Source: a virus (lineage: Duplodnaviria; Heunggongvirae; Uroviricota; Caudoviricetes). From it: DNA of 33,358 bases. Under the pieces are notes generated by a model. That model saw nothing but the letters and a program-made list of their open reading frames with translations, did not search any database and was not told the origin of the DNA. The DNA lies in the IMG/VR virus record IMGVR_UViG_2740892218_000011; one strand, written 5' to 3'. Made by a program: the position numbers and the translations under genes. Shown in pieces: positions 20,619 through 30,391 of this stretch (within the stretch, counting starts at the first letter, position 1; every line of letters starts with the position of its first letter).

Positions 20619-21219
20619 TTCACTGTTACCGCCATCAGCCAGCAGTTTCATGCGTTGTGCCGAAGCCGTTGGAACGCGCATTACAGACATTCCGGTAGAC
20701 CTCAACACGCTGTGGTCGCCGGATACCTGCCCGGTGCATCTGCTGCCTTATCTCGCCTGGGCGTTTTCCGTTGACCGCTGGGACCGCAACTGGCCGGAGG
20801 AAACAAAGCGCCAGGTGATTCGCGATGCGTGGCTGATACACCGACACAAGGGGACCATCAGCGCACTGCGAAGAGCCGTGGAGCCTCTCGGCTACCTGAT
20901 TGAAGTAAAGGAGTGGTGGCAACTCAACGAGGAGCCAGGAACATTTCGCATTGTTGTCGGAGTACTTGATCAGGGCATCACCGATGAAATGTATCAGGAA
21001 CTTGAGCGCCTTATTGCGGATGCAAAACCGGTAAGTCGCCATCTGACGGGGCTGGCGATCAGCCTGAGTGTGCACGGAAAGATTTTCGTTGGTACGGGAT
21101 GCTATCACGGCGATGCCCTGACGGTTTATCCCTACACCCCGGAGTCCATTATTGTCGAAGGGGATTATTTCCCTGCCCCGGCCATTCATTTAATTGATAA
21201 TCTGAGAGTAAACGCATGA
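20611..21219 (+). CDS. I: Baseplate/tail protein I
   Basis: Start at ATG 20611 overlapping the J stop (ATGAGTAA); gpI position. Confidence 0.8.
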   Translation: MSNSLLPPSASSFMRCAEAVGTRITDIPVDLNTLWSPDTCPVHLLPYLAWAFSVDRWDRNWPEETKRQVIRDAWLIHRHKGTISALRRAVEPLGYLIEVKEWWQLNEEPGTFRIVVGVLDQGITDEMYQELERLIADAKPVSRHLTGLAISLSVHGKIFVGTGCYHGDALTVYPYTPESIIVEGDYFPAPAIHLIDNLRVNA

Positions 21220-22715
21220 CAGTGAAATACTACGCTATTCTGACTAATCAGGGCGCAGCACGGCTGGCTAACGCGACGATGCTCGGCAGTAAGCTGAATC
21301 TGACGCAAATGGCCGTTGGTGATGCGAATGGTGTCTTACCGACACCAGACCCGGCACAGACAAAACTGATTAACCAGAAACGCATCGCGCCGCTGAATCT
21401 TCTGAGTGTTGACCCTAACAATCAGAGCCAGATTATTGCGGAGCAAATCATCCCTGAAAACGAGGGCGGATTCTGGATCCGTGAGATTGGACTTTATGAT
21501 GATGAAGGCGTACTCATTGCGGTGGCGAACTGCCCGGAAACGTACAAACCGCAGTTGCAGGAAGGCAGTGGTCGTACCCAGACTATCCGCATGATTCTGG
21601 TTGTCACGAATACCGAAGCTATTACGCTGAAAATCGACCCGTCGGTGGTACTGGCAACCCGTAAATACGTGGATGATGAAGTCCTGGAATTAAGGCTGTA
21701 TGTGGATGACCAGATGAGAAACCACATTGCCGCACAGGATCCTCATACCCAGTATGCACAGAAACATAATCCGACATTTACCGGAGAACCAAAGGCGCCG
21801 ACGCCTGCCGCAGGAAATAACACCACGCGGATTGCGACTACTGCGTTTGTTCAGGCCGCTATTACCGCTCTGATTAACGGTGCGCCAGCCACGCTGGACA
21901 CACTGAAAGAAATTGCCGCAGCCATTAACAATGACCCGAAATTCAGCACCACCATTAACAATGCGCTGGCACTGAAAGCGCCGCTGTCGAGTCCCGCACT
22001 TACCGGAACGCCAACAGCACCTACTGCGGCACAGTCGGTCAACAATACACAAATTGCCACCACGGCTTTTGTGAAATCAGCAATTGCGGCAATGGTGGGT
22101 TCTGCCCCTGCGGCACTGGATACACTGAATGAACTGGCGGCGGCGCTGGGGAATGACCCTAACTTTTCAACAACAGTACTTAATGCACTGGCAGGTAAAC
22201 AACCGCTGGACAATACGCTGACTAATTTGAGTGGAAAGGATGTTGCTGGTCTTCTCGCATACCTTGGTTTGGGGGAAGGTTCTGCGTTGCCTGTTGGTGT
22301 AACAGTTCCGTGGCCTTCAGCCACACCTCCAGAGGGCTGGCTAAAATGCAATGGTGCTGCCTTTGATAAGCTGAAGTATCCCAAACTAGCCACAGCGTAC
22401 CCGTCAGGAAAACTGCCTGATTTACGCGGTGAATTTATTCGTGGCTGGGATGATGGGCGTGGTATTGATGCCGGACGTGCTTTATTGAGTATTCAGAGAG
22501 ATGAGGTTAGAAAGCTCGAATTGAAATACTGGGGACCGGCCTCAAACAGTTCACCATCAAAAACATTTGCAATCAGCGACAGTGCAGGAGGCGGGCTGTA
22601 TACAGATGGAATAAGTCAGTCGGGCGGCGGAGTATTTAATGCCTTTAAGATTCCCGGCGGTAGTGAAACACGCCCGCGAAATATTGCATTTAACTATATT
22701 GTGAGAGCTGCATGA
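21216..22715 (+). CDS. H: Tail fiber protein H (constant N-terminus plus currently expressed variable C-terminus)
   Basis: 499 aa; repeated tail-fiber motifs (TAFV...A...AP..LDTL.E.AAA..ND); the last 150 codons or so lie inside the invertible segment. Confidence 0.85.
   Translation: MTVKYYAILTNQGAARLANATMLGSKLNLTQMAVGDANGVLPTPDPAQTKLINQKRIAPLNLLSVDPNNQSQIIAEQIIPENEGGFWIREIGLYDDEGVLIAVANCPETYKPQLQEGSGRTQTIRMILVVTNTEAITLKIDPSVVLATRKYVDDEVLELRLYVDDQMRNHIAAQDPHTQYAQKHNPTFTGEPKAPTPAAGNNTTRIATTAFVQAAITALINGAPATLDTLKEIAAAINNDPKFSTTINNALALKAPLSSPALTGTPTAPTAAQSVNNTQIATTAFVKSAIAAMVGSAPAALDTLNELAAALGNDPNFSTTVLNALAGKQPLDNTLTNLSGKDVAGLLAYLGLGEGSALPVGVTVPWPSATPPEGWLKCNGAAFDKLKYPKLATAYPSGKLPDLRGEFIRGWDDGRGIDAGRALLSIQRDEVRKLELKYWGPASNSSPSKTFAISDSAGGGLYTDGISQSGGGVFNAFKIPGGSETRPRNIAFNYIVRAA
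22252..22277. repeat. Invertase crossover site, left (hix/gix-like)
   Basis: TTCTCGCATACC-TT-GGTTTGGGGGAA inside H; right half-site resembles gix GGTTTTGGATAA. Confidence 0.55.
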
Positions 22716-23317
22716 TGAATAACGCGATATTAAACAATGAGCTTATTGCCGTACAGGAAGGAAACATTATCGTTTACAACTATAACAGTGAGACAAGGGA
22801 ATATATTTCTGCATCAACCGAATTTCTTGCTGTAGGTGTTGGTATTCCGGCGTATTCCTGTTTAGATGCACCTGGCACACATAAAGCTGGTTATGCTATC
22901 TGCCGTTCAGCAGATTTAAACTCATGGGAGTATGTGCCAGACCATCGCGGTGAAACGGTCTATAACACTGAAACAGGAGAAGCAAAAGAAATTACAGTAC
23001 CGGGAGATTATCCTGAAAATACAACCACTCTCGCTCCGTTAACGTCATACGATAAATGGGATGGTGAGAAATGGGTGACCGATACTGAGGCACAGCATAG
23101 CGCCGCAGTCGAAGCGGCAGAAGCACAGCGCCAGTCACTGATTGATGCTGCTATGGCTTCCATCAGTCTGATTCAACTGAAATTGCAGGCCGGACGGAAA
23201 CTGACGCAGGCAGAAACAACCCGACTTAACGCCGTGCTGGATTACACTGACGCGGTGACGGCAACAGATACCAGCACCGCGCCGGATGTCATCTGGCCTG
23301 AACTGCCGGAGGCGTAG
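22712..23317 (+). CDS. G: Tail fiber assembly chaperone G
   Basis: 201 aa; conserved C-terminus (...DVIWPELPEA) shared with the inverted paralog. Confidence 0.8.
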   Translation: MMNNAILNNELIAVQEGNIIVYNYNSETREYISASTEFLAVGVGIPAYSCLDAPGTHKAGYAICRSADLNSWEYVPDHRGETVYNTETGEAKEITVPGDYPENTTTLAPLTSYDKWDGEKWVTDTEAQHSAAVEAAEAQRQSLIDAAMASISLIQLKLQAGRKLTQAETTRLNAVLDYTDAVTATDTSTAPDVIWPELPEA

Positions 23318-23741
23318 GCCATTTAATATCTGGCGCACCGGAAGTATCGACCAGTTCCAGTGCGTCCAGATAATCCAGCCACAGATTATATTGCGCCAGT
23401 TCCTCGCCTTTCAGACGACCAATAGCCGCTTTACCAGGCCATTGTTTACTGTTCATATAATCGTTGGCCTGATTAATTAGTAGCTGTCTTTCTGATTCAG
23501 TAATTTCAATAAGTTCTTCATGCGTAGGGGCAGGAATATCCGCCCACGCGGGCAGCCCATCACCTCCGGCAATACGGATTTTTCCTTGTGGCGGTTCAGC
23601 CATAAATTCACTGATAATATTTTGACTCACCTCCTTAGCATCTGATAAATCCCATCCCTCTGATTTATATTTATCAATCATATCCACAGGGAAAAAAGCA
23701 TTATGCCTTGCGCTATAAACATATTCGTTCATATAAATCAT
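23289..23741 (-). CDS. Alternative tail fiber assembly chaperone (G')
   Basis: 150 aa on the opposite strand; C-terminus (...PDIKWPTPPAVQAR) homologous to G; 3' ends of G and G' overlap convergently. Confidence 0.75.
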   Translation of the reverse strand: MIYMNEYVYSARHNAFFPVDMIDKYKSEGWDLSDAKEVSQNIISEFMAEPPQGKIRIAGGDGLPAWADIPAPTHEELIEITESERQLLINQANDYMNSKQWPGKAAIGRLKGEELAQYNLWLDYLDALELVDTSGAPDIKWPTPPAVQAR

Positions 23742-23752
23742 CCTGAATAAAA

Positions 23753-24163
23753 TTATTCACCAACAGCCCACCAACTGTAAGTCATTGACACCTTGTCGCT
23801 GGTTGATGCAGTTCTGTAAGCAGAATTAAAGCCGGTTAATGTTGGGCCTTCTACGGACATAACGAATCCACGCCCTGCACCAAAAGGCGCACCGCCATCG
23901 CCAGAATGGGTAAGAATGGCGATATCCGCTTTTTTAGGGAAAGGGATAGGAAATGTAATCCTCATTGTTTGCGTCGATAATTTCGGCATAGCCTCACCAC
24001 GACCATATTGCAGGATTTTCCCGTTGGGTAATTTCATCCATCCATCACCACTGGCAAAAGAGGCCATGTCCGGTATCTGATTTTCCCCTGTCCCCACCCC
24101 TCGTTTTGCTGCTTCTCCCAAACCAACGTTTTTAACTTCGAAAACAGAGCTATCTAATAGCAT
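23753..24163 (-). CDS. Alternative tail fiber C-terminal cassette (H'), expressed only after inversion
   Basis: Minus-strand ORF that crosses the right crossover site in the same codon phase as H; shares the GLGE junction with H. Confidence 0.7.
   Translation of the reverse strand: MLLDSSVFEVKNVGLGEAAKRGVGTGENQIPDMASFASGDGWMKLPNGKILQYGRGEAMPKLSTQTMRITFPIPFPKKADIAILTHSGDGGAPFGAGRGFVMSVEGPTLTGFNSAYRTASTSDKVSMTYSWWAVGE
24113..24138. repeat. Invertase crossover site, right (inverted copy)
   Basis: Reverse complement reads AAGTTAAAAACG-TT-GGTTTGGGAGAA; matches the left site in 15-16 of 18 core positions. Confidence 0.55.
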
Positions 24164-24182: not shown

Positions 24183-24791
24183 ATGCTTTTTATGCAAATT
24201 GGCTATATTCGCGTATCAACAAATGACCAGAACACGGATTTGCAACGCAATGCGCTCAATAGCGCAGGATGTGAACTGATTTTTGAAGATAAAATCAGCG
24301 GAACAAAATCAGCCAGACCGGGATTGAAAAAACTGCTCAGAACGTTATCAGCGGGGGATACGCTCGTTGTCTGGAAACTGGACAGGCTGGGCAGAAGCAT
24401 GAAACACCTGATCACACTGATTGAGGAATTGCGGAAAAAAGGTGTCAATTTTCGTAGTCTGACGGATTCAATTGATACCAGCACCCCAATGGGACGATTT
24501 TTCTTCCACGTGATGGGCGCCCTGGCTGAAATGGAACGTGAATTAATTGTAGAGCGTACACTGGCCGGACTGGCAGCAGCCCGCGCACAGGGGCGAATTG
24601 GTGGGCGTCGCCCGAAACTGACAAAAGAGCAACATGAGCAAATAGCGAGGCTGATTAAAAACGGCCACGACAGAAAACAGCTGGCCATAATTTACGACAT
24701 CGGTATATCGACGATTTATCGTTATCACCCTGTAGGTGACACGCAACCCGGAGGAATAATTGAGAATACTCAGGAAACAAAAAACCGCTAA
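24183..24791 (+). CDS. Serine DNA invertase (Hin/Gin/Pin/Cin family)
   Basis: 202 aa; N-terminal catalytic region IGYIRVSTNDQNTDLQ with active-site Ser, resolvase fold motifs (VVWKLDRLGRS), C-terminal HTH. Confidence 0.9.
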   Translation: MLFMQIGYIRVSTNDQNTDLQRNALNSAGCELIFEDKISGTKSARPGLKKLLRTLSAGDTLVVWKLDRLGRSMKHLITLIEELRKKGVNFRSLTDSIDTSTPMGRFFFHVMGALAEMERELIVERTLAGLAAARAQGRIGGRRPKLTKEQHEQIARLIKNGHDRKQLAIIYDIGISTIYRYHPVGDTQPGGIIENTQETKNR

Positions 24792-24811
24792 TCTGAACAT
24801 TAGCGGTTTTT
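24781..24811. terminator. Bidirectional rho-independent terminator between convergent invertase and U genes
   Basis: Perfect hairpin AAAACCGCTAAT-CTGAAC-ATTAGCGGTTTTT, A-tract on one side and T-tract on the other; stem includes the invertase stop codon. Confidence 0.6.
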
Positions 24812-24819
24812 ACGTTAAA

Positions 24820-25308
24820 TCAGAACACCCCTTTAACTGAGCTGACCACATTGTTAAGGGATGATGTCACCTTATCTTTAAGACCGGACAGCATATCACT
24901 GAACGATGAGGATTGCAGGCGCTCCCGCAAATCCTCATCACATCGTTCAAGGGTCAGGGAAAACTCTATCTTTTTCGCTTTCCCGTAGCGATCCAGTTCA
25001 GAGCGGGTCGTGCTCGTTTCAGTCAGAACATACATGCCGTAAATCTGCCCGACGCCATCAATCAGAGGCCACGGGCGTCCCGCATACGCCTGCGTGGTCA
25101 GCAGCGACAGCGACACTTCGCCGCCTGTAATCTCAGGATAAAGCACGCCAGAAAGAACGATGCGATCATCACCTGCACCGATATACTGCCAGCTTGCTGA
25201 ACGGTTAACGCGCTCGTTTTTCACATGTCGCCAGCTTTTGTTTTGCTGTAACTGCTGATGCGGCAATGTGCGCAATTCAAAAACAAACATGCCGTAGATC
25301 ATCATCAT
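24820..25308 (-). CDS. U: Tail protein U
   Basis: 162 aa, gpU family size; last gene of the minus-strand tail block. Confidence 0.8.
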   Translation of the reverse strand: MMMIYGMFVFELRTLPHQQLQQNKSWRHVKNERVNRSASWQYIGAGDDRIVLSGVLYPEITGGEVSLSLLTTQAYAGRPWPLIDGVGQIYGMYVLTETSTTRSELDRYGKAKKIEFSLTLERCDEDLRERLQSSSFSDMLSGLKDKVTSSLNNVVSSVKGVF

Positions 25309-25319
25309 GGCACGACTCC

Positions 25320-28157
25320 TTACTCTTTATCATAAAAGCTTCCACGCCCGGCACGGGTACGCCGCTCCAGTTCTGCCCTGACCATTTCGCCGACCAGTTT
25401 CGCCAGTTCGCGGGGATTCTGCGTAACAACGTTATGCAGATGGACATGAATTTCACCACCAAATCCGGGGGTCGCAGCCTCCCGGCTGCGGGAAGATGCG
25501 GAAACGGGCGCAACTGGCGCACGTGCGGCCTCCACGACCGGACGGGAGCTTGCTGCAACAACAGGGGGCAGCGCCGGAGATAACGGAGCCGGGGGCGCGG
25601 GAGTGATATTGATTGCAGGAAGAGCCTTGTTGCTCTGCGCAACCTTTCGCTCCTGCCACTCCCCACGAACAGCAAGCGCACGGGGCAGGTTCTTAAAGAC
25701 AATATCACCGGGGCCGATACGCTTTTTCGTCTCATCAACCAGCCTGCCTGTGTTATCTGCAATTTTGCTGAGCCTGCGCAGCGTGCCAGTGTTGTTGTCC
25801 GTGAGCGGCTTGTTGTCTTTAGGCTTATCGCCTCCGGTCCCTGTTTCCGCAGATTTCGGCGGATTGATTTTTGCCAGGTCCCCCTGAAGTAAAGCAACCT
25901 TGTCCTGAAGAATGGCCGCACGCTGCGCGTCTTCGATTTTCTTTCTCGCCCTTTCCGCTTCATCTGGAAGGACGCCAAGTTTTTCCAGTATCCATGCCAG
26001 CGTATCCAGCAGCATTTTTGCAGGCGTCAGGACAAGCTGTAACGCACCGCCAAGAACGTTGCCGAACACCTCGCCAGCACTGGTGCATTTATCCAGCGTT
26101 TCCTTGCTGGATTCCATCGGTGACAGCAGCGATGTAAACCAGTTAAAGACCTGAATCACGCCATCACGAACCAGTTCGAAAACAGGGCCAAACCGTTCAA
26201 AGGTTTCGCGTAACGGGGCCAGCCGCTCCATAATCCCGCTGAACACCCCGGCAAAAAATGCCCTGATTGGGTCCCAGTATTTCCAGATGAGAACGGCAGC
26301 TCCGGCAAGCGCAGCTACGATAAGACCGACCGGGCTGAACAACGCCCCGATAGCGCCTCCCAGTAAAGAGACGGAACCCGCCACCATTCCCCACAGCGCT
26401 GGCAGGACCCTGACAGCATTCATTGATCCGGTCAGGAGGGAAAAACCAAGACGCAGTTTTGCCAGCGGGCCAGCAAGCACCCCAAGAGCCAGTGACAACG
26501 AGCCAACCGTTGCAGTCATTGCCAGCAGCGCACCGCCTGCAATCAGTAGCTGGCGCGTCAGTGCCGGATGGGCCTGCGCCAGCTCCGTCACCTTTGAGAC
26601 CACCCGAGTGAGCCACTGCGTGACAGAGCGCAGCGGACCGTCAATCAGATCCGCAATGCGGATACGCAGCCCCTCCCATGCACTGCCGAGTGATTTCAGG
26701 TCGCCATCAAGGTTATTGGCCATAACCTTTGCCGTGCGTTCAGCCTCACCGCGTGCGCCTTCAAGTTCTTTTCTCAGTTTGGGCAGAGAACCGTCACCTG
26801 CCGCATCAACGAGAGCCATAAATGACGTGAAGGCCTCTTCTCCGGCTATGTCCTTAAAGAACGATACCCGGTCAACTTCCCCGTATTTGCGGGTGGCTTT
26901 ATAAAGGTCGGCCAGCACATCCTCCATCGGGCGCATTTTGCCGTTCGCATCAGAGACAGCCACACCAAGCTCTTTCAGCGCCTCTGCTGCCGCCTTTGGC
27001 GGTGATGCCAGACGAGCAAGGCTGGCACGCATTGCCGTCCCGGCATCACTCCCTCTGATACCCATATTCGCCAGCACGCCCGCCATCGCTGCGGCCTGCT
27101 CCAGCGATATTCCCAGCTTACCCGCCACCGGACCTGCATATTTCATGGTTTCGCCCAGCGCGCGAAGGTCGGTGTTAGTACGGGTAAACGCCGCAGTAAG
27201 TGTGTCGCCGACCCGGTCCATCTGGTCAGCAGAGAGGCCGAACTGCGTCAGGATATTTGAGCCAATATCCGCCGTCTCGCCAAGGTCCATACCGCCAGCC
27301 GTTGCCATGCTCAGCACGCCGGGAAGCGCAGCCTGAATGGCTTCTGGTGTGAAGCCAGCCATAGCAAGAAATGCCTGCCCACTGGCGGCATCACTCGCAG
27401 TAAACTGCGTTTCAGAGCCGAGCTTTAGCGCCTGCTCACGCAGCGCCTTAAACTGCGGGCTGTTCTGGTCAATTCGCGTCAGCGCCTGCACACGGGACAT
27501 CTCTTTCCCGAATCCGATAGCGGGCTGCAAAAAACGCCCGGCAGCATAGCCGCCAGCCGCTGCCGCACCAGTTGCCAGCGCACCACCCGTTTTCAGTTTT
27601 CCCGCTGTTTCCTGCGCGCGTGAATACTGCTCACGCGCCCGCGTTACACGCGCAAGCGCCTGTCGTTCGCGTTCAAGCTGGTTGTTGTACTGTTCGGTGC
27701 GTCTGATGGCCTGCTGGATGGTGTTATCGCTGCCTGTCAGGGAAATACCGTGGCGTTTAAGCTCTCCGCCAAGCTCCCGCATTTTCTGAATTTCCCGTGT
27801 GCGCGATTCATTCAGGCGTTCAAGCCGGGTGCTTAACTGCTGCATCAGCTTTTGTTGTTTTTCGCTGAGCACCGTACCCGTGCGTTGTAACTGATGAAGG
27901 GCGTTAAGCTGGCGTCGTGCTTTCACGATGCCAGCATCCGCTTTACTGACAGCATCGCGGGCGCGCTCAAATGAACGCGCCTGACGCTCGAGATTTTTGA
28001 TCGCCCCCTGCGTTCGCTGGATGGAGTCACCAAGCTGTCCCATCAGGCGGCGGGCGTTTTCGGCTGGCCGGGTCAGCCTGTCAACAGCACTGAAGGCGAC
28101 CCGAATGTCAAGAGTCTTCATCGTCTGCATTCCCACTGCGAAGTGCCGCCCGCTCAC
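25320..28157 (-). CDS. T: Tail tape measure protein T
   Basis: 945 aa; Ala/Gly-rich with coiled-coil N-terminal third and hydrophobic central segments typical of tape measure proteins. Confidence 0.85.
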   Translation of the reverse strand: MSGRHFAVGMQTMKTLDIRVAFSAVDRLTRPAENARRLMGQLGDSIQRTQGAIKNLERQARSFERARDAVSKADAGIVKARRQLNALHQLQRTGTVLSEKQQKLMQQLSTRLERLNESRTREIQKMRELGGELKRHGISLTGSDNTIQQAIRRTEQYNNQLERERQALARVTRAREQYSRAQETAGKLKTGGALATGAAAAGGYAAGRFLQPAIGFGKEMSRVQALTRIDQNSPQFKALREQALKLGSETQFTASDAASGQAFLAMAGFTPEAIQAALPGVLSMATAGGMDLGETADIGSNILTQFGLSADQMDRVGDTLTAAFTRTNTDLRALGETMKYAGPVAGKLGISLEQAAAMAGVLANMGIRGSDAGTAMRASLARLASPPKAAAEALKELGVAVSDANGKMRPMEDVLADLYKATRKYGEVDRVSFFKDIAGEEAFTSFMALVDAAGDGSLPKLRKELEGARGEAERTAKVMANNLDGDLKSLGSAWEGLRIRIADLIDGPLRSVTQWLTRVVSKVTELAQAHPALTRQLLIAGGALLAMTATVGSLSLALGVLAGPLAKLRLGFSLLTGSMNAVRVLPALWGMVAGSVSLLGGAIGALFSPVGLIVAALAGAAVLIWKYWDPIRAFFAGVFSGIMERLAPLRETFERFGPVFELVRDGVIQVFNWFTSLLSPMESSKETLDKCTSAGEVFGNVLGGALQLVLTPAKMLLDTLAWILEKLGVLPDEAERARKKIEDAQRAAILQDKVALLQGDLAKINPPKSAETGTGGDKPKDNKPLTDNNTGTLRRLSKIADNTGRLVDETKKRIGPGDIVFKNLPRALAVRGEWQERKVAQSNKALPAINITPAPPAPLSPALPPVVAASSRPVVEAARAPVAPVSASSRSREAATPGFGGEIHVHLHNVVTQNPRELAKLVGEMVRAELERRTRAGRGSFYDKE

Positions 28158-28326
28158 GCCAGCTAACCACTTCGCCGGGCGTCATCATGAAGATTTCGGC
28201 GGGCGACCAGTTAAAAATAACGGCAATATCTGCCACAAAGTCTTCTATGTGCTCAAAGCACACAACCGTGATCAGGCTTCCGTCGCCTGTTCGTTCTTCC
28301 CGCCAGAGTCCGCACCGCTCAAAAAA
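28108..28326 (-). CDS. E' extension of the tail assembly chaperone (made as E+E' by -1 frameshift)
   Basis: -1 frame relative to E starting at the slippery site; overlaps the start of T as in P2. Confidence 0.7.
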   Translation of the reverse strand, partial: FFERCGLWREERTGDGSLITVVCFEHIEDFVADIAVIFNWSPAEIFMMTPGEVVSWRERAALRSGNADDEDS

Positions 28327-28640
28327 TTTACGGCAACCACACATAACTGAATAAAGTCACGGGATGCCATTTTTTTGATCGTCACTTCATCCAGTCGCGG
28401 TGATGTCACGCGTGACAACAGCGTAAACATGGATTCCGCTTTCAGATTCAGCACATCAGACAGCGACAGACCACGCAGGGATCCAGCCTGCTCAATAGCC
28501 CCGGTAATCTCCACATACGTGATTTTTTCGTCGCCTCGCTCAATTGGCTGGGTAAGTTTTACGCCGCGCTCGCCGGTTTCTTTCGCAGTATCAGCAACCA
28601 CCACAGCGTTTTCAGTATTGGTATTTTTCGTCTCTTTCAT
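28272..28640 (-). CDS. E: Tail assembly chaperone E
   Basis: 122 aa; position between FII and T; contains the slippery heptamer near its 3' end. Confidence 0.8.
   Translation of the reverse strand: MKETKNTNTENAVVVADTAKETGERGVKLTQPIERGDEKITYVEITGAIEQAGSLRGLSLSDVLNLKAESMFTLLSRVTSPRLDEVTIKKMASRDFIQLCVVAVNFLSGADSGGKNEQATEA
28320..28326 (-). promoter_or_regulatory. Programmed -1 ribosomal frameshift slippery heptamer T_TTT_TTG
   Basis: Minus-strand TTTTTTG phased as X_XXY_YYZ in the E frame (codons AAT-TTT-TTG = N-F-L); the -1 frame continues as E'. Confidence 0.7.
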
Positions 28641-28694
28641 CAGAAAACTCCTTTCAGTCAGAGGCGACGCACTGCGCCGCCTGCATATTACTTA

Positions 28695-29207
28695 TCAGCC
28701 GAGCCCGAGCGCGGAGCGGATGCGGTCGGGTACAATGTCCTTGCCATCCTTCCGGTAGATGTGGTTCACCAGGTCAATTTCCCACACCGGACGATCGTTA
28801 ATACTCAGCTTGTAGTAGGTGTTTTTGACAGCGTAAGTGTGTGACGTGGCTTCGCCCTGTTTGGCCTCCCCCATATCAATTTCCGTCACACGCCCGCGCA
28901 TCTCGATTTCATACAGGTCGCTTTCTGCATCGGTGTAGTATTCACCCGCAAAACGCAGCAGCGTGCCGTCCATTGTTCCGCCATATTTAAGGAACAGCGC
29001 ACGAACGGCGCCACCCATGACAAAACTCGCATCAAGCGCGGAATCGTCCAGGCCGAGGTCGATACTCACCGCCCCCATCATGCCACCACCACGATAGCTG
29101 TCGGTTTTACGCGTCAGTTTAGGCGGGGTGACAGACGTCACCTTACCCACTTCATTTTCACCATCCACAAACAGCGTAAAAAAACGAAGATGTTTTGGTA
29201 CGGCCAT
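28695..29207 (-). CDS. FII: Tail tube protein FII
   Basis: 170 aa, matches P2 FII size; follows the sheath gene. Confidence 0.85.
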   Translation of the reverse strand: MAVPKHLRFFTLFVDGENEVGKVTSVTPPKLTRKTDSYRGGGMMGAVSIDLGLDDSALDASFVMGGAVRALFLKYGGTMDGTLLRFAGEYYTDAESDLYEIEMRGRVTEIDMGEAKQGEATSHTYAVKNTYYKLSINDRPVWEIDLVNHIYRKDGKDIVPDRIRSALGLG

Positions 29208-30391
29208 TAAGCACCTCCAAGCACTGCAAATGCAGGACCAAAGAACTCATCAGTGAACGCCTGGTAAAGCTCCATATCTTCCAGCGGAGGAACGGGCGTA
29301 TATTTATAGCGAATACGCACGCGCCCCTGTCGTAATTCTGTGGTGCTGTTATCCACGATGTCATACCAGCACGATGCGCCAATCAGTTTCCCGGCAGTAA
29401 CCAGCGAATCCAGTTTTGCCCTGATGGCACTGATGACGTCCTTCACGTTCGCGGGCGTTAGTGGACTGTCGATGGTTTCAAACTGCGCTTCCGCAATTGA
29501 ATCAGCCAGCACCTGTGCGGTTCGGGTATACACCTCAAAGATGTAGGCGTTCGTTTCCGGTGTGCGGTTGCCCCAGAAGCGGAACCCGTTGCGGCGAATG
29601 ATGGTTGTGATTTCTTTGTTGTTGAGGCTGTTGGCATCGCTGTCATCAGCCTGCAACGACCAGAACACATGCCTGGACATCCCCAGCACATTTTTAACCG
29701 GAACGTTGGACAGCGATTTGTGCCAGCCCTGTTCATGGTCAATGTACGCACGAAGGCCGCACGCATAGGCTGGCGCGGGGAAAACCTCATTCTCGCCACT
29801 TTTCGGGTTGTAAGCGATGAAGTCCGGCCACAGGAGCATCAGCTCGCGTTCGTTGAATTTTTCACGGTATGCAATGGCTTCAGCCATCGTGTTACAGCCA
29901 TGACAGGAGGCATACACAAACGCGCGCAGTTTACCTGCAATCACGCACAGGGATTTTGTCACCGCCTCCGTGTCCAGCCCCGGCGCGGCCAGAATACGCG
30001 GACGGTATCCGATGCTTTCATCCTGCTCTGCAACAAGCAGCGCATACATCCCCGTATAGCTGCCGTCGGATTCAGAACCACCGATAACCAGTTGATCCTG
30101 TGTTTTTCCGTCTTCTTCTTTGTGTTCAGCCACGCGAACGACGATCACCTTTGTGCTCACCTGGTCTGCAATGGGTTTCAGCGCACGGTACAGCGTCCCC
30201 GTTGTCCCGCATTTTCCCAGCACGTCATTGACGCGGGTCACTAATGCAGGCTTGTTCAGCGGGAACAGCTTCGCGTCCGCATCGTCCGCCGTTGCCACGA
30301 TACCGATAACGCTGGAATCAACGTCGTTAATTGCTGTTACCAGGTCGGTACTTTCCGTAACGCGGGCGCCATGAAAGCGAGTTTCACTCAT
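29207..30391 (-). CDS. FI: Tail sheath protein FI
   Basis: 394 aa, matches P2 FI size; first gene of the minus-strand tail operon. Confidence 0.9.
   Translation of the reverse strand: MSETRFHGARVTESTDLVTAINDVDSSVIGIVATADDADAKLFPLNKPALVTRVNDVLGKCGTTGTLYRALKPIADQVSTKVIVVRVAEHKEEDGKTQDQLVIGGSESDGSYTGMYALLVAEQDESIGYRPRILAAPGLDTEAVTKSLCVIAGKLRAFVYASCHGCNTMAEAIAYREKFNERELMLLWPDFIAYNPKSGENEVFPAPAYACGLRAYIDHEQGWHKSLSNVPVKNVLGMSRHVFWSLQADDSDANSLNNKEITTIIRRNGFRFWGNRTPETNAYIFEVYTRTAQVLADSIAEAQFETIDSPLTPANVKDVISAIRAKLDSLVTAGKLIGASCWYDIVDNSTTELRQGRVRIRYKYTPVPPLEDMELYQAFTDEFFGPAFAVLGGA

Follow-up and report, generated by a model that had tools for sequence, protein, structure and literature searches.

The window, by which we mean the whole 33,358-nucleotide stretch analyzed here (IMG/VR record IMGVR_UViG_2740892218_000011), represents a P2-like prophage in the P88 lineage (Xuanwuvirus; Peduoviridae). 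With its first 25 kb as query, Escherichia phage 520873 was 95% identical over 85% of that length, and P88 was 92% identical. Integrase, replication gene A, head, baseplate, and tail genes are all present, and the prophage is apparently complete. Our subject is its tail-fiber operon, in which two inverted crossover sites enclose two alternative fiber tips, each with its own chaperone, beside a gene for a serine DNA invertase. The features are as follows, with positions numbered from the first letter of the window.

21216-22715, plus strand: H, the entire tail-fiber gene (499 amino acids [aa]), with an N-terminal Phage_tail_fib domain and a Collar domain near the C-terminus
21216-22265, plus strand: constant, baseplate-proximal N-terminal part of H (about 350 codons), outside the invertible segment and joined to whichever cassette faces it
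22252-22277: left crossover site (pixL/gixL-like), reading TTCTCGCATACC TT GGTTTGGGGGAA, with the central TT at 22264-22265
22266-22715, plus strand: Hc, the present variable C-terminus of H (149 aa), Collar-type and StfE-like
22712-23317, plus strand: G, the TfaE-like tail-fiber assembly chaperone for Hc (Pfam Caudo_TAP, E 2e-32)
23289-23732, minus strand: G', the chaperone of the alternative tip (147 aa; Caudo_TAP, E 4e-30), silent in the present orientation
23753-24124, minus strand: H'c, the silent alternative C-terminus of H (123 codons), Gp53-like_C (Pfam PF21882, E 3e-12)
24113-24138: right crossover site (pixR/gixR-like), reading TTCTCCCAAACC AA CGTTTTTAACTT, with the central AA at 24125-24126
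24192-24791, plus strand: serine DNA invertase of the Gin/Pin/Hin/Cin subclass (199 aa), with Ser9 as catalytic residue
24213-24276, within the 5' end of the invertase gene: putative Fis-dependent recombinational enhancer, proposed by homology
24780-24811: perfect hairpin of 13 bp that separates the invertase gene (plus strand) from gpU (minus strand) and is probably a bidirectional terminator

The initial annotation had described a segment holding the H C-terminus and G on one strand and an alternative H' cassette and G' on the other, an arrangement that the Pfam domains and the convergent layout bore out. The 3' end of G' overlaps G by 29 nt, and the two cassettes converge, with each chaperone gene immediately following that of its tip. 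The constant part of H (Phage_tail_fib at residues 1-150, E 3e-62) was 98% identical to H of phage pro483 over residues 1-257, and was the same in L098, a flipped relative described below. Hc matched Pfam Collar (E 3e-14) and PHROG 523/3100 (tail [collar] fiber) and had 53% identity to the C-terminus of e14 StfE, while G was 86.5% identical to e14 TfaE. On the opposite strand, the H'c tip was 99% identical to the fused H' of the O157:H7 strain BB24-1, and G' was 96% identical to its counterpart in pro483, with 67% identity to e14 TfaP over the C-terminal half only. The two tips come from unrelated domain families, Collar and Gp53-like_C. As judged from substitution patterns, the silent cassette is under purifying selection: the ratio of nonsynonymous to synonymous substitution rates (dN/dS) was 0.18-0.23 for H'c, 0.07 for G' against pro483, and 0.07-0.23 for both taken together in comparisons with pro483 and O157. 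Low values in the open frames of H'c and G' would be expected if these were periodically expressed. In NCBIfam, neither the fiber proteins nor the invertase had a match at or above the cut-off, the only ones being sub-threshold matches to XisF and Mpi.

Several smaller observations concern the same genes. The open reading frame (ORF) of G' can be extended to an ATG at 23741; a start at 23732, giving 147 aa, is most likely. The shaft of H (21800-22230) contains two diverged tandem copies of about 55 aa each, ...TRIATTAFVQAAITALINGAPATLDTLKEIAAAINNDPKFSTTINNALALKAPL and ...TQIATTAFVKSAIAAMVGSAPAALDTLNELAAALGNDPNFSTTVLNALAGKQPL, and H of pro483, which is 74 aa shorter than the H' obtained by flipping the window in silico, apparently has no second copy.

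Crossover sites and fused products

Both sites have the 26-bp, 12-2-12 layout of hix and gix sites, and their TT and AA cores are reverse complements of each other. The right site, as its reverse complement, reads AAGTTAAAAACG TT GGTTTGGGAGAA, so that it lies in the opposite orientation to the left site. Between the two, the inner half-sites agree at 11 of 12 positions, with one G/A difference, and the longest exact run in common is the 10-nt TTGGTTTGGG, the very core given in the initial annotation; the pair of inverted sites proposed there was likewise recovered by direct read-out, alignment, and an independent consensus scan. From TT to AA the distance is 1,861 bp, equal to the length of the segment.

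An inverted-repeat search ranked this pair first (18 nt at 89%). For the consensus scan, we used a half-site pattern, TTCNCCNAAACC, derived from loci of other genera with the window excluded in order to lessen circularity. It had exactly two exact matches in 33 kb, both of them the inner half-sites (0.08 expected), and two matches were reached in none of 100 shuffles. A pattern made from the window's own sites also matched those two alone (0.11 expected). No third site was found within the 33-kb window, where the relaxed TTCNCCNAAACC search, allowing two mismatches, gave background (35 matches versus 31.7 expected). The sites occupy positions homologous to those of the e14 sites and of sites in about 15 other genera, and the right one precedes the invertase start by about 80 bp, a placement also seen in relatives from many Enterobacterales.

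The reading frame is continuous across the crossover in either orientation. The constant N-terminus of H lies outside the segment and the alternative C-termini lie inside it, in equal codon phase: TT of the left core forms positions 2-3 of a CTT codon in H, and the right core, read on the minus strand, places TT at positions 2-3 of a GTT codon in the H' cassette. Inverting 22265-24125 in silico joined 350 constant to 123 alternative codons without a stop, yielding a 473-aa H' that contains LAYLGLGEAAKRGVGTGENQ. The initial annotation had predicted such an in-frame fusion from the codon phase, and the 473-aa ORF, which is identical to one that occurs naturally in L098, confirms it.

A 136-aa "H'" ORF that runs up to an ATG at 24163 adds to the silent cassette 12 codons that are open by chance, and it has no Shine-Dalgarno sequence. 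We also observed that, for BB24-1, which is in the flipped state, RefSeq presents H as a C-terminally truncated pseudogene next to a separate 136-aa "gp53-like" protein (L005, 917-2338), and that the gene list of L098 (4539-5960) gives the 136-aa ORF only. The fused 473-aa ORF is intact in both, despite the annotation.

Both orientations in public data

The initial annotation had proposed looking for both orientations, and we found both in public data for this very element, using loci that encode the identical invertase, gathered by exact-protein look-up. Over 8.6 kb, contig BBVI01000008.1 (GCA_001514645.1) agreed with the window at 100%, and L099/L091 was 100% identical to it. L098 (GCA_048986895.1) had flanks 99.93-99.96% identical to those of the window and the segment 22261-24126 inverted, while its sister assembly, L100, kept the orientation of the window. 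The inversion breakpoint in L098 fell within 22261-22278, and its fused H' ORF agreed with the in-silico prediction at all 473 of 473 residues. Moreover, the G/A difference between the inner half-sites was on opposite sides in L098, showing that the polymorphism moves with the segment, as predicted. This swap places the exchange within the 10-bp identical core, which begins with the central TT.

Draft assemblies carried a further trace of inversion. In four of them the segment stood as a contig of its own (1,821-1,883 bp), and in one, L105, this contig was exactly 22264-24126. Two longer contigs, L101 and L102, stop at the crossover, the former exactly at 24126. A 1,903-bp contig (L103; DRR017183) had the invertase-side flank at either end. 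The only way to assemble such a contig is from reads that hold both junctions, hence both orientations were present in that sequencing run. Both states therefore occur in nature and within single read sets.

The same was seen at greater distance. In the O157:H7 strains 2-6-2 and BB24-1, the flanks were 100% identical and the 1.86-kb segment was inverted at 99.95%, with breakpoints in the common CTTGGTTTGGGAGAAG. Among the matches listed, five O157:H7 genomes had the orientation of the window and eight were flipped. Across complete Escherichia coli genomes, whose identity to the window was no higher than about 94-95%, 45 records were colinear with the window and 23 with the query flipped in silico. 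Phage pro483 is in the flipped state. Draft contigs from other genera, namely Citrobacter, Yokenella, Kluyvera, and Photorhabdus, also end inside the homologous site (L010, L012, L014, L016, L018, L028). Breaks at the crossover and stand-alone segment contigs (also L101-L107) are a usable signature of active invertons in short-read assemblies.

Invertase, known systems, and cassette history

That a Hin/Gin-family invertase lies directly downstream of the segment, as the initial annotation had it, was upheld by matches to Pfam Resolvase (E 2e-51) and HTH_7 (E 2e-12), to PHROG 125 (DNA invertase), and by 82% identity to e14 PinE. Residues 1-181 aligned with the Mu Gin structures 4m6f/3uj3 (E 1e-88), with Ser9 in the motif RVSTNDQ (IRVS9TNDQ), and the DNA-binding domain of Hin (1hcr) matched as well (E 5e-11). 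The gene starts 67 bp past the right crossover. A start at 24183 was considered, and the ATG at 24192 (MQIGYIRVSTNDQ; 199 aa, as in relatives) is most likely instead.

In Hin, the basic helix-B residues 47, 48, and 51 and, in helix 1 of the DNA-binding domain, Q151, R154, and L155 are contacts to Fis and the enhancer that are conserved in invertases and not in resolvases (McLean et al., PMC3798978). With the one-residue offset (+1) between Hin and window numbering taken from the 1hcr match, K46, K47, and R50 correspond to Hin K47, K/R48, and K/R51, and Q150, R153, and L154 to Hin Q151, R154, and L155; all six are present. ATTTA/TAATG in the same paper is a clue to the placement of the Hin and Gin enhancers (PMC3798978). 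Early in the invertase gene, at its 5' end, two 15-bp stretches are candidate Fis cores, GTATCAACAAATGAC (24213-24227) and GCGCAGGATGTGAAC (24262-24276). They correspond to nucleotides 22-36 and 71-85 of the gene, with centers 48-49 bp apart depending on register, and are invariant or nearly so in six invertase genes, Mu gin among them. Both lie at codons where, as we take it, the Hin and Gin enhancers are also placed. Invertases of this subclass need the host protein Fis and supercoiled DNA for inversion; a like dependence on Fis and an enhancer may hold here, with weak support for the enhancer.

In design the system equals Mu G/Gin, P1 C/Cin, and, above all, the e14 P segment with Pin; it is already known, and close relatives are annotated. 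The e14 sites, CTCTCGAAAACC TT GGTTTGGGAGAA and TTCTCCCAAACC AA CGTTTATGAAAA, are near-identical to those of the window, and e14 likewise has two convergent tip and chaperone cassettes, one of them common to both elements, with the invertase gene just past the right site. Inversion in e14 has been demonstrated experimentally, by sequencing and polymerase chain reaction (PCR; PMC4272514). The two elements differ in that e14 is a lambdoid remnant, defective and with its fiber gene truncated, whereas the window is an apparently complete prophage with a full 350-codon H shaft. They also differ in the second cassette, which encodes StfP/TfaP in e14 and a gp53-like tip with another chaperone in the window.

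In Mu, as in the window, a constant N-terminus (S in Mu, H here) lies outside, two cassettes of C-terminus and chaperone lie inside, and the invertase gene is outside the right end. The distance from the annotated G-segment boundary to the start of gin is 67 bp, equal to that from the crossover to the invertase start in the window, and the putative enhancer stretch is conserved between gin and the window invertase gene. The Mu G segment is about 3 kb, compared with 1.86 kb here, and Mu is a transposable phage, while the window phage is P2-like. On sequence comparison, the likeness to Mu is one of recombination apparatus and layout, not of fiber modules. P1 Cin with its C segment was likened by class only, its enzyme belonging to the same invertase subclass. 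Salmonella Hin is also of this Fis- and enhancer-dependent subclass, though it inverts a promoter, not a coding cassette.

The P2-like prophages of the enteropathogenic E. coli (EPEC) strain E2348/69 contain a two-variant locus and a three-repeat shufflon, with alternative fiber C-termini and a Hin-homologous invertase, and coexisting variants were demonstrated there by whole-genome sequencing and PCR (PMC4272514). Compared by description, these loci are alike in design to that of the window, which is the two-site form. More broadly, systematic surveys of programmed inversions have shown enrichment for tail-fiber genes (PMC9881135).

Relatives of the window point to how this two-site form may have arisen. 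Prophages with the identical 199-aa invertase often have a third Collar cassette, X (487 bp), along with a third site, and these three-site relatives (L088/L096 versus L092/L093/L095) differ in permutation at 99.9% identity. For example, in the 99.9% identical L088 and L092, X is either silent beside the invertase or joined to H, and the two are two inversions apart. Hc of the window appears to be a chimera, its first 200 nt matching X at 199 of 200 positions, and its positions 200-450 matching Hc of L095 at 248 of 250. From these matches, the window form was probably derived from a three-site shufflon via recombination between directly repeated X and Hc, an origin that would have no effect on function, since both remaining sites are intact.

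The cassettes themselves are shared across elements. The Hc-G cassette (StfE/TfaE-like) and the sites are common to the e14 P segment, and H'c-G' is common to the O157 P2-like prophage and pro483. All 441 nt of G' (23292-23732) were the same in an O157:H7 prophage (L004, 2993-3433; 100% identity), and the adjoining Hc had a synonymous divergence (dS) of about 0.74 from the same prophage. This sharp mosaic boundary between G' and Hc indicates, as far as such divergence can be read, a recent cassette exchange.

Two observations concern other parts of the prophage. The tail module FI-FII-E-T-U (24820-30391, minus strand) converges on the invertase gene, with the 13-bp hairpin between them, and is inverted relative to canonical P2, in which FI follows on the same strand (cf. 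L003/L004); E. coli RM9088 is arranged like the window. Between replication gene A and the portal gene, at 7925-9202, we found a plasmid-type partition module that pairs an actin-like ATPase, ParM/StbA (Pfam E 7e-82 and 4e-65), with a Plasmid_stab_B protein. PADLOC identified no defense genes among the accessory ORFs, this module included. The module might permit a carrier state like that of a plasmid, or it could be no more than cargo in the P2 accessory hotspot.

Mechanism, alternatives, and meaning

We conclude that the locus is an active Gin/Pin-type site-specific inversion switch in the tail-fiber operon of a P88-like prophage, to which we assign a probability of about 0.93. That a Gin/Pin-type invertible tail-fiber switch of this kind is active in nature is essentially certain. 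In the proposed mechanism, invertase dimers would bind both inverted 26-bp sites, most likely aided in synapsis by Fis bound to an enhancer at the 5' end of the invertase's own gene. Both sites would be cut at the central TT/AA, presumably at exactly that dinucleotide, and half of the complex would rotate by 180 degrees before religation, the outcome being inversion of the 1,861 bp between 22265 and 24125. Because the segment includes neither the promoter nor the first 350 codons of H, only the cassette that faces H would be expressed. The present orientation would yield H-Hc (499 aa; Collar/StfE-type tip) with chaperone G, and the inverted one H-H'c (473 aa; gp53-like tip) with chaperone G'. 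A population of lysogens would consequently release two kinds of virion that differ in their receptor-binding tips, a hedge on host range. That the tips bind different receptors, and that host range changes with orientation, is suggested by their unrelated domain families and by P88, in which residue swaps in the fiber C-terminus alter host range (PMC5285337); neither an invertase nor inversion is mentioned in that study.

Several results weigh against this conclusion. A degenerate Fis motif fits only the distal of the two candidate cores, and conservation at third codon positions in the enhancer region, 54-69% versus 45-49% elsewhere in the gene, is a modest excess. The outer half-sites of the left and right sites are strongly divergent, such that the full 26-mers agree at 17 of 26 positions, although the e14 sites diverge likewise. 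In BLASTP comparisons of Mu S, S', U, and U' with the window tips and chaperones there was no match, which for the tips against S and S' is a further point on this side. Lastly, a scan for sigma-70-like promoters found none for the invertase, nor any for the silent cassette, with total matches below the shuffled expectation. By eye, a TTAACT-17-TAATAG arrangement overlaps the right site; it is weak, and we draw no promoter claim from it.

The negative promoter scan and the imperfect sites, including the one-base difference between the inner halves, are also what one might expect of a frozen relic, in which the architecture comes from an active ancestor and the segment in this genome no longer inverts, either for lack of invertase expression or on account of sub-optimal sites. 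The status of the window version as a reduced two-site derivative fits with this too. However, a 99.9%-identical prophage was found flipped, and read sets with 100%-identical sequence gave stand-alone segment contigs and the one contig that has the invertase-side flank twice, at either end. Furthermore, the invertase ORF, Ser9, and the enhancer-contact residues are intact, and the core dinucleotides (TT/AA) are compatible. We therefore consider a frozen relic very unlikely.

Somewhat less probable still is that the switch mainly serves the bacterial host, for example through masking of receptors from other phages by a fiber-derived protein, as reported for e14 PinQ and StfE2, or through retargeting of a tailocin-like particle. 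In its favor are the StfE-like nature of the expressed tip (53%), the 86.5% identity of its chaperone to TfaE, and a 2025 study in which PinQ-driven inversion of the e14 P segment produced the fusion StfE2, which blocks adsorption of T2 (PMC12529663). Yet the P2/P88-like prophage in the window is apparently complete, having genes for integrase, replication, head, tail, and baseplate, and the constant part of H is a full fiber shaft, unlike the truncated remnant in e14. H also belongs to a late tail operon that is normally silent in lysogens, and its place there, in an apparently complete prophage, renders a role like that of PinQ/StfE2 unlikely here. Finally, the notion that the sites are a chance inverted repeat, or a by-product of palindromic GLGE-coding sequence common to fiber genes, with no site-specific recombination at all, can draw on the fact that the 4.5-kb region contains quite a few inverted repeats of 12-18 nt (13 pairs were listed), but it is refuted by natural inversions that break exactly at the sites, in addition to the exclusive match of the independent half-site consensus to these two places (0.08 expected) and their homologous positions in e14 and about 15 other genera.

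Beyond the inversion switch itself, an extension by analogy with e14 PinQ and StfE2 is marginally easier to credit than either the relic or the host-serving device, and is nevertheless a long shot. The StfE/TfaE-like product of one orientation might alter the surface of the lysogen itself and so block adsorption of unrelated phages. In a related vein, reduction from three sites to two, via recombination between paralogous cassettes, gives rise to new chimeric tips such as Hc and might thus be one way in which fibers evolve.

The finding of an active inversion switch in this P88-like prophage has little discovery value, and its practical use is in annotation and phage engineering. Annotations routinely get the silent cassette and the flipped state wrong, listing a separate "gp53-like" ORF or a pseudogene of H, and short-read assemblies break at the sites. 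The biology is that of classic bet-hedging, well described for Mu, P1, e14, and P2-like prophages, in which a temperate phage carries two receptor-binding tips and expresses one, and predictions of host range for P88-like phages should count both tips.

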